Source of the DNA: an uncultured bacterium
Lineage (GTDB): Bacteria; Patescibacteriota; Minisyncoccia; Phycocordibacterales; PALSA-1337
Direction of reading: 5' to 3'
Assembly (NCBI GenBank): GCA_963848635.1
Contig: CAWKEA010000005.1
Coordinates: 257,526 to 321,525, forward strand
DNA length: 64,000 bases
Part shown: piece by piece, positions 1,875 to 58,696 of the stretch
Layout: each line of letters opens with the position of its first letter
Position numbering within the stretch: the first letter of the stretch is position 1
Translations under genes and position numbers: made by a program
The notes under the pieces: generated by a model
The model's input: the letters and a program-made list of their open reading frames with translations, nothing else
What the model was told of the DNA's origin: nothing
The model's database searches: none

Positions 1875-3300
1875 TTAATAATAAACTTCAATGTTGAGAT
1901 CAACCTCATTACTGCTTCCCCTTCCGCCGGTATCGACGATGATCTTGTAATTTCCAGGCGTAGTAGCGGTTTGTTCATTCGACGGACATACAGCATTTGA
2001 AGTTAGGGGTATCAGACACAACTTGGAAGGCAAGACGAATGATATCTGGCTATTTCCTTGCGCGCTCGAAGGAATGCCTACCCATAGTACAGCCGAGTAA
2101 TTTCCGTTTGTTAGCCTGACTTCGGTCAAGTCAGTGGTGCTCGACATTCCCAAAGGGACAAAGTTATAGCCTGTGATCGTTATCGTATTGCCAACTTCAG
2201 CAATCGCAGGATATATCGAATTTATAACAGGAAATCCAGGATTTGAGAAGGAATTTGCTGCGGTTGTGTCAGCTGAATTCGTCTGTACGTTCATAGAATT
2301 CTGTTCATTGATCTGCTTATAGAAGCTAAATTTATCTATAGAGCTTGTCCCGAGAATCTGCGACTGAATTTTCCAAAGGAACGGCATGACCATAAAGATC
2401 AAAGCACCTATGATCATGAATACGACTAATATCGTCTTTCTGCTCTTGTGCTTGCTTGTGTCAGCGGCATTCGATACTATCCGACTCTCCTTTGCATTAA
2501 AGTAAAGCTCGAAATACACCAACATAAGCAGAGGATACACGAGTACCACCAATGCTCCGATGAGCGCAATCCCAAAGAGCACTCCGAATATGATCAGCAA
2601 GACTTCCAAATGCAGGATCGTCGCCAGGCCAAATGCTATAACAAAGAAAATCACTGATACGATCTCCGCTATCATAGCGACGAGACCACACAAGAGGCCG
2701 ATGAGCAGGATTTTACCGAATATGCTCCACCAGCGGTCCTTTACCAGAGACCAACTGCCGATAAGAGCATCGAAACCGCGCTTGCCATCAACCATAAACT
2801 CAAACTGACTGAAAAGAAGATATATAAGGAAGGCAATGGCCGGAATGATGAGGAGATATTCTCCGGCATAAAATATGAGAGTGGTTGCGACAGTCAATAC
2901 GAGAAATGGCCAAAATATCCTGATTCCTTGAATATGCGACTCCGATGCCTTGAAAGTCGCTTTTGTAGAGATCAGTGACGCCTCGAAGAAAAATGGCCAG
3001 GAAAAGAACGATGACCAGAAAAACACATCCGAGAGTAACCAGATAGAGCGGGCCTACGGCAGAAGCTGGAAAATTTCCTTGCTGGCCAGAGAATATCGTG
3101 TAAAAGAATCCTGCATACAGAAGAATGACTCCAATGGCACCGACACCGATAGTCGCCAGAGAGAGCGGCCACAATCTTTTGAAGAATAATTTATAGGAGG
3201 TCCATGCTTTTTCTACGATGATGACGGTCGGCAAGAGAGGTTTAAGAGGGATCGCTTGCAAAGCGGGAGCAACAGTATTCGATATATCCTGTGGGTTCAT
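1875..3300 (-). CDS. polytopic membrane protein with C-terminal IPT/TIG-like beta domain; apparent frameshift near 2925-2945
   Basis: Two overlapping minus ORFs (2800..3300 and 1875..3026) both look protein-like on either side of ~2930 (TM-rich segments). Joined they give a ~475-aa protein ending in an IPT/TIG-like segment (NPGFPVINSIYPAIAEVGNTITITGYNF...GNYKIIVDTGGRGSSNEVDLNIEVYY). Confidence 0.5.
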
Positions 3301-3504: not shown

Positions 3505-3540
3505 AAGAAAAAACCGCCGGACCCTCGTCCGAGCGGCTTT
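3505..3540 (-). terminator. rho-independent terminator-like hairpin (CCGCtCGGAC-GAGG-GTCCGGCGG + U-run on minus strand)
   Basis: Plus strand reads aaaaaaccgccggaccctcgtccgagcggcttttcc, a GC stem flanked by an A-run and a T-run, about 230 nt downstream of the 16S 3' region. Confidence 0.5.
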
Positions 3541-3911
3541 TCCTAGTGCTTGTATGCCTTTCTTTCTTTATACATTTATATTTTAACCGACGTCCTCTCT
3601 TTTGTTCCGTTCATCCATGAGCTTTTCTATAGAGAAAGCCCATGTATGCCATTCACCTTCTCATGGCTGAGGCTATAGTTCGAGTCTACAGCTAGACATT
3701 CATACTTCGAAGTCAAAGACTTCTCAGCATGATCGACACGTTAAGTCATCGTTCACCGAAGCGAACGAAAACGTTTTTCACCTTGAAAATTTCCACGAGC
3801 AGCTTCCGCTACCCGTGCCTTGTTACGACTTACTCCCTGTCATTGAGCTTACCTTAGGCCGCCATACGGCGGACTTCGGGTATTCCCAACTCCCTTGAGT
3901 TGACGGGCGGT

Positions 3912-4788
3912 ATTGTGTTTCGATAAATTTTCGAATATGCTCGTTCCCACGTAGCGAGCGGATTTCCCGCACTACGCGAGTCCAAAGTTTGCAAATTCAT
4001 AGTCTCTCGAACTGTCAACATCTTTTGTAATACCTTTTTCGTCAGATGCTCTTTGCTTTCACCAAGCGATCAATCTGGCAGAAAATCTCGCAAATTCTTT
4101 TGCTTTGAAGCAATTGAAAAGGATTTTTCTTGAAGAAAGGATGATTATTTTACCAAGATATCCTATTGAGAACTTACCGAGTAGCAATAACATTGGCAAT
4201 GATTGGCGCGTTCTTCTTTTTGAAAGTAACACTTCGCCGCATTTCAATGATAATTCTGTCACATCGTTCCAAAGATCTCCTTGTCCCTTTCCTGCATCTT
4301 CATAGTGGAGTCATTTGGACACTCGACTCCTCATGCGTTATAAAGAAGACTTCCGATATTGACATAGAAGCAACCTTCACCATCGATAAGTCCGACAACA
4401 TAATCTGTTTGACACCTTTGGATTTGTGTCCTTCCCATGCGCTTATTATATCAAATTAAGTTGACGCATAGTACTACGACTCAGCTGACTTCTACATAAA
4501 TTTAATTATACTTTATCATTTTTGATAACAACGCATCAGATCTCCCGGGTCATTCATTTTTCTGTTCCAACCATCCTAATCAAGGTTTTCAACGGAAATT
4601 TCCCCTGACTCACCGCCCTTAGTTGGAGTCGTCATCGCCTTCTTTCTATCGGGCTGCCCTTTGCATCCCGGATCCTCCGAACATCCCCTCGCGGAAGATG
4701 TACTATCCTTTCGCTACTACCGCACTCATAAATCACGGAATGGATTTTAACAGCTAGATGACACGACTGCCAAGCGCATTGCATTCTG
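3912..4788 (-). mobile_element. intron-like insertion in 16S rRNA (between the 1392 block GACGGGCGGT and GTACAAG...GAACGTATTCACCG), probably a group I intron with a degenerate LAGLIDADG homing endonuclease ORF
   Basis: The conserved 16S sequence stops after gacgggcggt(attgtg) at ~3912 and resumes at ~4788 with tgagtacaagacttgagaacgtattcaccg. The ~875 nt between have no 16S homology. A minus-strand mini-ORF in them encodes MGRTQIQRCQTDYVVGLIDGEGCFYVNIGSLLYNA*, which carries a LAGLIDADG motif. Confidence 0.7.
4330..4438 (-). pseudogene. degenerate LAGLIDADG homing endonuclease remnant (first LAGLIDADG motif, premature stop)
   Basis: Minus-strand translation gives ...DYVVGLIDGEGCFYVNIG...; VGLIDGEGCF matches the LAGLIDADG/LAGFIDGEG consensus. 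The ORF is only 35 aa before its stop. Confidence 0.55.
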
Positions 4789-5874
4789 AGTACAAGACTT
4801 GAGAACGTATTCACCGCAGCGTGCTGATCTGCGATTACTAGCGATTCCGGCTTCATGAGGTCGAGTTGCAGACCTCAATCCGAACTGGCGCATCCTTTAG
4901 AGGGTTGGCTCCGCCTTTTATCGGCTTGGCGTCCTTTTGTAGATGCGATTGTAACACGTGTGTAGCCCAGGGTATCAGAGGGCCATGCTGACTTGGCGTC
5001 ATCCTCGCCTTCCTCCCACGATTCTGCTCGATCAAGTCCAATCCTAAGTCATAAAGTCTTAAGTTCGCATTCTTGATTTACTTTATGAACTTCCGATTGA
5101 ATGCAATCAAAATCGTGGGCAGTCTCGCCTGACATATATAACAGGCAACGAGGGTTGCGTTCGTTACCCCACTTAAGGGAACAATTCAAACCACGAACTG
5201 ACGACAGCCATGCAGCACCTGTCTAACTGCCTTGCGGCGACCAAAGTTTCCTCTGGTCTTCAGCTAGATTTCTAACCCTGGTAAGGTTTTTCGTTTGTCG
5301 TCGAATTGAACCACATGTTCCACCGCTTGTGCAAGTCCCCGTCTATTTCTTTGAGTTTTAACCTTGCGGTCGTACTACCCAGGCGGATCTCTTAACGCGT
5401 TAGCTACGGCTCGAGGAGGGTCGATACTCCTCAAACCAAGAGATCATCGTTTAGGGCGTGGACTACTGGGGTATCTAATCCCATTCGCTACCCACGCTTT
5501 CGTGTTTCAGCGTCAAGAATGCTCCAGTCTCCTGCCTTCGCTTTTGGTGTTCCCCATGATATCAACGCATTTCACCGCTACACCATGAGTTCCAGAGACC
5601 CCTCGCATCTTCTAGCTATGCCGTTTCCCGCGCAGGTCCCCGGTTGAGCCGAAGAATTTAACGCGAGACTAACACAGCCGCCTACACACCCTTTACGCCC
5701 AATAATTCCGGATAACGCTTGAGGCACTCGTATTACCGCTGCTGCTGGCACGAGTTTAGCAACCTCTTATTCATGAGCTCTTCAATAAACTTAGTCGCTC
5801 ATAAAAGGTTTTTACGTACCGAAGTACTTCATCAACCACGCGGCGTCGCTCCGTCAGGCTTTCGCCCATTGCGG

Positions 5875-5905
<31 letters not shown>

Positions 5906-6457
5906 ATGGACCGTGTCTCAGTTCCATCGGTGGGGGTCAGCCTCTCAGCTCCCCTAGACGTCATAGCCTTGGTAGGCCGTTACCCTACCAACTAGCTGAT
6001 ATCGAAAAGGCCGTTCCAAGGGCGAAAAAACTTTACCCTTCAGCCTTGCGGCTTCAGGGACTATCGGGAATTATCTAACCTTTCGGCTAGTTATGCCCGA
6101 CCCTTGGGGACGTACCTGATTATTACTACCTCGTCTGCCGGTGACCCTTGCGGATCCCCTAGACTTGCATGCCTTATCCACGCCGCCAGCGTTCATCCTG
6201 AGCTAGAATCAAACTCTATCAATAAATGAACGGAACAAAAGAGAAAACGCAAATTCGGCTTGTCTGCCGTGAGGCAGACCTGTGCCGACTTTCATAATCG
6301 CCAATGATCACTGTTTATTGATATCGTCCCATCCAGCTCGTAAATTATCGTTTATTATTTGGACTTGCTTTTATCTCAATCTTTTTTCAAGATTGTGTGT
6401 GAATTTCAATTTTCTAAATTTTCAAAGGGCCCAGCCCCCGTTTGGGACATGGGATGT

Positions 6458-58152: not shown

Positions 58153-58624
58153 AAGCTTTGTGCTCTGCCAGTAGGCTGCACTCCGCTGTACTGTTTACCG
58201 TGGTATTATACCATACCTATATAATTAAAGTCAATAGCGACAGAAAACAGCCCCCGGATGTGCGTAGTGTGTCCGATTCGAAGAGATTTTCCGCTACCTG
58301 CGTATACCAGTCTTTCTTAGAAAATTACCCACTAGGGTGAAAGAAACTGCATAGACAACAAACAAGACTATTTTCAACGGATACCAAAAAGAACACGACC
58401 ATTGAGCAGGCGTCCGACACTTCAATGCACGAAGTTGTTAAGGATTTGATAAAACTTTCAGAACTACTGAAACACGGCTCTACATATTACGAATTGGCTA
58501 ATTCCAGAGAAAAAGAGGAAATTATGAGAATAATCTTTTCAGAACTTTCTGTTTCCGGAAATATCCTTACGTACAAATGTAAAAACGGCTTCAAGGCTCT
58601 AGAAAGTCGTTTTAATCATTCTTG

Positions 58625-58696
58625 TATCCCCACGTGGAATCGAACCACGATCTCGAGCTTCGGAGGCCCGCGCTCTATCCGTTGAGCTATGAGGAC
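58625..58696 (-). tRNA. tRNA-Arg (anticodon CCG)
   Basis: Reverse complement gives GTCCTCA-TA-GCTC-AACGGATA-GAGC-G-CGGGC-CTCCGAA-GCTCG-AGAT-CGTGG-TTCGATT-CCACG-TGGGGAT-A. The acceptor stem pairs 7 of 7 (2 GU), the T-loop is TTCGATT, the anticodon loop CT-CCG-AA. No encoded CCA. Confidence 0.85.

Follow-up and report, generated by a model that had tools for sequence, protein, structure and literature searches.

The 16S rRNA gene in the window (the whole 64,000-nucleotide stretch of DNA analysed here) is interrupted by an 876-nt insertion that is very probably a group II-type, class-C-like ribozyme intron, belonging to a family found at 16S positions 1396-1399 in CPR genomes and carrying an inactivated LAGLIDADG_1 gene in its domain IV. 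The insertion is homologous to the members of this family, shares a fold supported by their covariation, contains a loop complementary to both exons, and harbors an open reading frame that has decayed. From these features we infer that the intron splices, by a chemistry considered below, and that it was once spread by homing. It is a new example of a kind of intron already documented in CPR/Patescibacteria, and as such is ordinary and unsurprising to a specialist.

The interrupted 16S rRNA gene and the limits of the insertion

The Rfam model of bacterial SSU rRNA places the gene on the minus strand, from 6224 to 3781. Its 5' exon, equivalent to about positions 1-1397 in E. coli, occupies 4788..6224 (minus strand; RF00177, 1247 bits), and the alignment runs up to ...CUUGUACUCA at 4796-4787; when the flanks were searched separately, the last aligned letters of this exon were ...GAAUACGUUCUCAAGUCUUGUACUCA, ending at 4787. 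The 3' exon, from A1398 to the 3' end, occupies 3781..3911 (minus strand; RF00177, 80.8 bits, E=1.2e-23), starts ACCGCCCGUCA, and covers model positions of about 1388-1533 (the last ~145). The 876 nt between the exons have no similarity to the Rfam SSU model. In E. coli numbering, the SSU alignment puts the insertion point between C1397/A1398 and C1399, within the decoding-centre strand. A sequence-only reading had described an intron-like element inside this gene, with limits at 3912-4788, and had suggested alignment to an SSU model as a check. That alignment matches both exons and nothing between them, fixes the exon junctions within 1 nt, and gives limits (3912-4787) within 1 nt of those proposed.

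Because an A stands on both sides of the insertion, its boundaries are ambiguous by 1 nt. Family HMMs and SSU alignments place the intron at 3912..4787 of the minus strand or, in the alternative register, at 3911-4786. The conserved AAU tail favours the first of these (4787..3912), and 5' similarity to relatives of the 1398 type favours the second (4786..3911); splicing would take place after C1397 or after A1398, and either register yields the identical ligated rRNA. The junctions are also based on 54 homologous introns, most of which end AAU or AUU directly before the 3' exon. Ligation would restore ...GUACUCACCGCCCGUCA... in the decoding-centre strand, with an expected junction of ACUCACCGCCC, that is, ...CUUGUACUC joined to ACCGCCCGUCA....

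The sole match to an Rfam intron model is to group-II-D1D4-1 (RF01998), at 4528..4428 (31.7 bits, E=0.0017). The window copy does not reach the gathering score of 35, a threshold passed at 35.7-58.1 bits by 13 related introns at the same site, comprising six relatives from the family and seven introns of sister lineages. Rfam Intron_gpII (RF00029), the model of domain V/VI, has no match in the window copy, even at E<=10 and with short stretches included. Family profiles built without the window copy gave one match each in nhmmer searches, with the 5' 335 profile positions at 4796..4428 (E=2.7e-61) and the 3' part at 3987..3902 (E=3.6e-17). The 3' boundary, AAU, agrees with the AY criterion for group II introns. 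The 5' motif reads AUGCG instead of GUGYG and is internal, 8 nt into the intron behind a linker, which is a known variant in rRNA group II introns (PMC4424553, PMC13190283). The single-A linker between domains IV and V is present (A3981).

Fold and exon recognition

Alignment with 31 relatives resolves the 5' end of the intron (4775..4787, minus strand) into a terminal linker, AGAAUGCA (4787-4780), and the GUGYG counterpart AUGCG (4779-4775). In this alignment (N)UGCGC is conserved, with 7-9 nt before it; a 5' linker has been described for the rns-1396 family (PMC13190283). Domain I (4544..4774, minus strand) is closed by a basal stem of CUUGG (4774-4770) and CCGGG (4548-4544), assigned by RNAalifold and pair counts. 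Family helices 1-7 are 90-99% paired among the 31 relatives, with compensatory changes in most pairs. Domain II (4487..4543, minus strand) corresponds to helix 8 of the family consensus, and its basal stem is partly eroded here, with five pairs of the helix not formed in the window copy. J2/3 (AGCUGA) and domain III (GUC 4480-4478 paired with GAC 4430-4428, enclosing an inner hairpin) lie at 4428..4486 (minus strand), as assigned by helices 9-10 and by the group-II-D1D4-1 match over 4528..4428. For domains I-III together, RNAalifold predicts 71 pairs from the 31 relatives. Sixty-six pairs are 93.1% paired, compared with 31-43% when slid, and 51 change on both sides; in 0 of 500 shuffles was any observed measure reached.

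The ORF is looped out of domain IV, whose 5' strand, UCCAAAG (4416..4422, minus strand), pairs with 3987-3981, the 3' strand CUUUGGA (3981..3987, minus strand). That this helix closes around the ORF is seen when partners are swapped among 53 introns: own partners form a mean of 7.6 bp, swapped partners 5.0 bp. Domain V (3946..3980, minus strand) reads CUCGCGUAGU-GCGG-GAAAU-CCGC-UC-GCUACGUGGG, a minimum free energy hairpin (z=-3.75) also supported by covariation. Its anatomy consists of 10 bp starting CUCGC, a 2-nt UC bulge on the 3' strand at 3957-3956, 4 bp, and a GAAAU loop of 5 nt, not 4; the CGC triad lies at 3978-3976, with its G wobble-paired to U. Across 55 sequences, 770 of 770 cells hold standard pairs, compared with 31-47% paired in slid controls. 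Compensatory changes are found in 6 of the 14 pairs, and the CUCGC/GUGGG base is essentially invariant. Folds of all 55 introns place domain VI at 3912..3942 (minus strand), with an inner UUCGA/UCGAA stem, a weak outer GAG/CAC, and the 3' tail AAU. In most relatives this domain has a single bulged nucleotide on the 3' strand and a 3-nt tail, the canonical branch-site geometry; among the 55 introns folded, a bulged adenosine on that strand is absent from the window copy and from the AUUCGNAGUUUANCGAA-type subgroup.

A domain I loop read from the sequence, GGGCGGUGAGU (4608..4618, minus strand), comprises EBS1 and an adjacent stretch for binding the 3' exon. In the direction 4618-4608 it is the exact 11-nt complement of the ligated exons, ACUC followed by ACCGCCC. 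IBS1, the 5' exon end UACUC at 4788..4792 (minus strand; plus A4787 in the other register), is complementary to the EBS1 loop. Across the family, A/U in the loop covaries with U/A at exon position 1396, such that GGUGAGU in the loop goes with a 5' exon end of ...ACUCA, and GGUGUGU with one of ...ACACA. In most CPR hosts 16S position 1396 is U, not A, and A in the loop matches it. The register of EBS1 relative to its stem shifts by one or two nucleotides in the relatives, matching subsite 1396, 1398 or 1399. The predicted pairing is that of group II EBS1-IBS1 logic with a 3'-exon stretch added, and the complementarity of a single loop to both exons argues that the exons are brought together for ligation.

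It is tempting, though decidedly speculative, to see in this family a group II ribozyme that is moved by a DNA endonuclease and creeps along its target, the window copy perhaps sitting at a fourth subsite, after C1397. The 11-nt guide of the window copy is the longest contiguous one and pairs with both exons, resembling less the split EBS1/EBS3 arrangement of classes B and C than the internal guide sequence of group I introns. If true, exon alignment in such introns would consist of one continuous helix across the junction.

The endonuclease pseudogene, its relatives and known systems

On the minus strand, 3985..4438 holds a pseudogene of a single-motif LAGLIDADG_1 homing endonuclease, collinear with intact relatives of 152 aa. 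Only codons 1-35 are open, from the ATG at 4438 to 4334, followed by TGA at 4333-4331; the motif is MGRTQIQRCQTDYVVGLIDGEGCFYVNIGSLLYNA / YVVGLIDGEGCFYVNIG. When proteins of intact relatives were searched against the intron alone (tblastn), they aligned in one frame at about 40% identity, with E down to 1e-34. In-frame stops fall at codons 36, 60, 65, 92, 98 and 123 (TGA four times, TAG and TAA), and the frame shifts close to the C-terminus. Against Pfam LAGLIDADG_1, the read-through translation reaches 21.7 bits (E=3.8e-4), just missing the cutoff of 23.1, compared with 88.4 bits (L031) and 73.9 bits for the two proteins of relatives that were scanned. The mini-ORF with a LAGLIDADG motif that the sequence-only reading had pointed out is thus real and not a chance occurrence, given that intact 152-aa relatives align across the whole of 4438..~3985 in one frame, and the six in-frame stops bear out its view of a degenerated homing endonuclease gene.

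Intact ORFs are present in 36 relatives, at 126-185 aa and typically about 152 aa; those of close relatives, where aligned, start within domain III and stop at a UAG inside domain V. The solved structures closest to the protein of the intact relatives are the fungal mitochondrial enzymes I-OnuI and I-SmaMI (E about 1e-36 to 1e-45). An active LAGLIDADG endonuclease of this homodimer kind would be expected to have an uninterrupted ORF of about 150 aa, which is absent from the window copy with its 35 open codons. The intron has no other ORF of at least 100 aa and no reverse transcriptase. Recoding of UGA was rejected, as two of the six stops are TAG and TAA, and the first two TGA codons align with Ser and Lys of L031, not with Gly or Trp. 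Moreover, ORFs in the window reach 1270 aa under the standard code (code 11), so the stops in the pseudogene are genuine. An ORF spread over three frames was also rejected: the stitched protein scores only 15 bits for LAGLIDADG_1, intact relatives show a single frame, and the stitched protein found no match in a word-indexed protein search.

Relatives were collected from one genome per species, in a scan for 16S genes where GAATACGTTC-N6-CTTGTAC was not continued by normal sequence. This junction-pattern scan returned 120 loci with an insertion at the site, overwhelmingly labelled Patescibacteria/CPR, and the architecture of the window element is common to 54 of them. These 54 relatives, from genomes nearly all labelled Patescibacteria/CPR, occupy the same four-nucleotide site, which agrees with the earlier claim that such introns are typical of CPR. 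They begin (N)UGCGC..GGCAG after a 7-9-nt linker, share the same domain V, and mostly end AAU or AUU. By length they divide into two classes, ORF-less introns of about 400-570 nt and ORF-bearing ones of about 800-900 nt. They use three adjacent subsites, after 1396 (L007), 1398 (the majority) and 1399 (the "UCAC" group). A mosaic origin of the window copy, with the 5' half taken from the 1398 lineage and DII/DVI from the 1399 lineage, was considered but found no support; identity to the two lineages is similar, and the distance from each about equal, in every segment, and the copy therefore does not look like a recombinant. The window-specific 3' junction ACACAATACCGCCCGTC was also sought in metagenomes, where its 51 matches all lie in unrelated contexts and are due to chance.

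Two more intron lineages occupy the same 16S site in other genomes (L014, L045, L050 and L116; L049, L057 and L064). One starts UCGGGUCGCC... and measures about 870-1060 nt, with a related copy, L116, that starts UCGAGUGCC and measures about 500 nt; the other starts AAAUUAAAUUGCGCC.... Both match Rfam group-II-D1D4-1 at 41-58 bits (seven introns), so that three or more group II-type lineages share this single rRNA site. Extra group I introns often lie elsewhere in the retrieved 16S genes, as in L001, L005, L012 and L090 (Rfam Intron_gpI, 51-82 bits). At the Rfam gathering threshold, no extra group I intron was found in the 16S gene of the window.

The closest description is that of Tsurumaki et al. 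2024, who found group II-like insertions, 53 in number, only at about position 1400 of CPR 16S and named them "16IS9"; 39 of the 53 have a LAGLIDADG gene and none a reverse transcriptase, some ORFs are degenerate, and ORF-less copies are reported (PMC11270868). The window element resembles 16IS9 in its host group, its rRNA site, the Rfam group II match as classifying evidence, a single-domain LAGLIDADG_1 and the lack of a reverse transcriptase. It differs in nothing essential: in one register the window copy lies 1 nt from the subsites of the 54 relatives, and its ORF has decayed through stop codons, as opposed to the large deletions mentioned in that study (PMC11270868). A second description concerns the bacterial rns-1396 IIC-LHE family, whose members have a IIC backbone and a 5' linker, encode a single-motif LHE in domain IV, lack EBS2, and join domains IV and V by a single A (Liu et al. 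2026, PMC13190283). Thiomargarita namibiensis provided the first example of that family (Salman et al. 2012), and Liu et al. found it only in Thiotrichaceae (PMC13190283). The likenesses comprise insertion at 1396-1399, a single-motif LHE in domain IV, a 5' linker before a GUGYG-like motif, the single-A linker between domains IV and V (A3981), and a class-C-like domain V with a CGC triad. The hosts differ, being Thiotrichaceae there and mostly CPR for the window copy and its 54 relatives. On these shared features, compared by description, we infer that the CPR family and the Thiomargarita rns-1396 family are one. The feature-by-feature fit to both descriptions (PMC11270868, PMC13190283) places the window element in a known kind.

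Fungal mitochondrial rRNA genes contain group IIB1 introns with LAGLIDADG genes (Toor & Zimmerly 2002; Li et al. 2011; Mullineux et al. 2010; PMC4424553). They share with the window element the combination of a group II ribozyme and a DNA-homing LAGLIDADG enzyme in rRNA genes, as well as extra 5'-terminal nucleotides alongside loss of the branch-point motif. They differ in subclass (IIB1 as opposed to IIC-like) and in their organellar host, and the fungal enzymes are usually double-motif, some of them encoded in domain III.

Class C introns that encode a reverse transcriptase, such as O.i.I1 of Oceanobacillus iheyensis, are presumably small, with a CGC triad and a J2/3-domain III motif, AGAAGUCAGC...GUCAUAGUAC...GGGAAGGAC, which we take to be what Rfam group-II-D1D4-1 captures. 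These introns insert after transcription terminators and retrohome with their reverse transcriptase, whereas the window intron interrupts a conserved stretch of rRNA and carried the gene for a DNA endonuclease. A blastn comparison of a family member with annotated plasmids, for a link to the class C introns with reverse transcriptases, found nothing significant.

Proposed splicing, other readings and the setting of the gene

We propose that the intron would be transcribed within the pre-16S rRNA and fold into domains I-VI. The domain I hairpin loop would pair with the last nucleotides of the 5' exon and the first of the 3' exon, domain V would form the catalytic centre, and the intron would be excised and the exons joined. 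The first splicing step is probably hydrolysis rather than branching, since the GUGYG-like motif is preceded by an 8-nt 5' linker and a bulged adenosine is missing from domain VI. Mitochondrial rRNA group II introns that share both traits have likewise been proposed to start by hydrolysis (PMC4424553). The endonuclease may once have spread the intron by cutting intron-less 16S alleles, at an intron-less site of CTTGTACTCACCGCCCGTCA. With six stop codons it no longer does so, and the copy is therefore immobile and inherited vertically. The copy would now be kept only because the host needs it to be spliced. CPR genomes usually have one 16S copy (PMC11270868), and splicing must be kept up because 16S rRNA is essential and usually single-copy in CPR.

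The condition of the ribozyme bears on a different reading, which is that the element is dying, with a ribozyme too eroded to splice itself, so that this 16S copy is either non-functional or in need of a protein from the host or acting in trans. The window copy forms 53 of the 71 consensus pairs, the fewest of 32 sequences (59-71 in the others). In addition, 2 of 5 pairs are mismatched in the hairpin of columns 48-64, a helix whose pairing in the family is 99%, partial deletion has shortened the base of domain II, the branch-site bulge is missing, and any endonuclease or maturase function is dead. However, several of the missing pairs are register effects of the alignment, as manual inspection indicates, and 70 of the 72 columns invariant in 31 relatives are kept; the two departures look to stem from an alignment shifted by one column. 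Domain V does not differ from the family consensus, all 11 nt of the exon-binding loop match, and the exons score as intact SSU rRNA. With the single 16S copy usual in CPR (PMC11270868), loss of splicing would be lethal. We therefore regard this reading as improbable and prefer an intron that is still spliced.

Two further readings dispute the kind of element itself. Intervening sequences that fragment the molecule are known from bacterial rRNA, and the insertion could be one of these, cut out (e.g. by RNase III) without ligation, so that the 16S rRNA would be in fragments, the 3' one of about 130 nt; a second insertion in the same gene, at about 5020-5113, looks like an extended hairpin of that type. 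Against this, the two ends of the 876-nt element do not pair together, it has a conserved multi-domain fold in which 51 of 66 pairs covary, and there would be no use for a loop complementary to both exons unless these were aligned for ligation, which leaves excision without ligation very unlikely. LAGLIDADG genes, for their part, reside mostly in group I introns, and introns of that group lie elsewhere in related 16S genes (the four named above), so the decayed gene might point to a group I host. The sequence-only reading had allowed for a group I or a group II fold and had suggested Rfam group I models as a check. Its group II alternative has the group-II-D1D4-1 match (E=0.0017) in its favour, and its group I alternative falls: Rfam Intron_gpI has no match in 3600-5200 at E<=10, and the intron, with its limits fixed by SSU alignment, ends in U or A, not in the terminal G of group I. 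Along with the domain V hairpin and the EBS1-IBS1 pairing, this makes a group I intron next to inconceivable. The group II-type intron of the CPR family remains our reading; its homology to a covarying ribozyme family supports the self-splicing type that had been proposed, with splicing itself predicted.

The insertion has consequences for annotation and survey. Standard SSU models truncate the gene and misplace its 3' end, the model end being forced to 4739 because the gene is interrupted, and the truncated gene would be called partial. Amplicon primers at 1392/1406 would fail on this 16S gene. The intron is one more case of the gain and decay cycle of homing endonucleases, in which the ribozyme core is under selection and the protein gene rots. 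The 54 relatives offer a covariation-backed model of a bacterial LAGLIDADG-type group II intron, a class already described and predicted to splice in CPR.

Among the retrieved loci, no 16S exceeds about 84% identity to that of the host; the best match is from a Taylorbacteria MAG, and the host 16S shares lineage traits with Parcubacteria relatives. The 3' tail (3781-3795, minus strand) reads GGAAAUUUUCAAGG in place of GGAUCACCUCCUUU and has no CCUCC anti-Shine-Dalgarno. Similar tails occur in many Parcubacteria-type relatives of the retrieved loci and CCUCC is kept in others, and its loss here looks like a lineage trait rather than an error. The second insertion, of 92 nt, lies in the 5' exon at about 5020-5113 of the window (minus strand; model position about 1160) and lengthens a helix into a single long hairpin (MFE -38.4 kcal/mol, z=-4.6); it has the look of an expansion segment or of an intervening sequence of the RNase III type rather than of an intron.

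No 23S or 5S rRNA was found after the 16S gene in the 64-kb window, and a GC-rich hairpin followed by a T-run lies at about 3505-3545, about 250 nt downstream of the gene, which thus seems to be transcribed as a unit of its own. Apart from it, tRNA-Arg(CCG) at 58624-58696 is the sole RNA gene in the 64 kb. Two long ORFs on the minus strand, at 1875-3026 and 2800-3300, overlap in different frames, and the stretch of 1875-3300 may represent one membrane-protein gene with a frameshift or a sequencing error.
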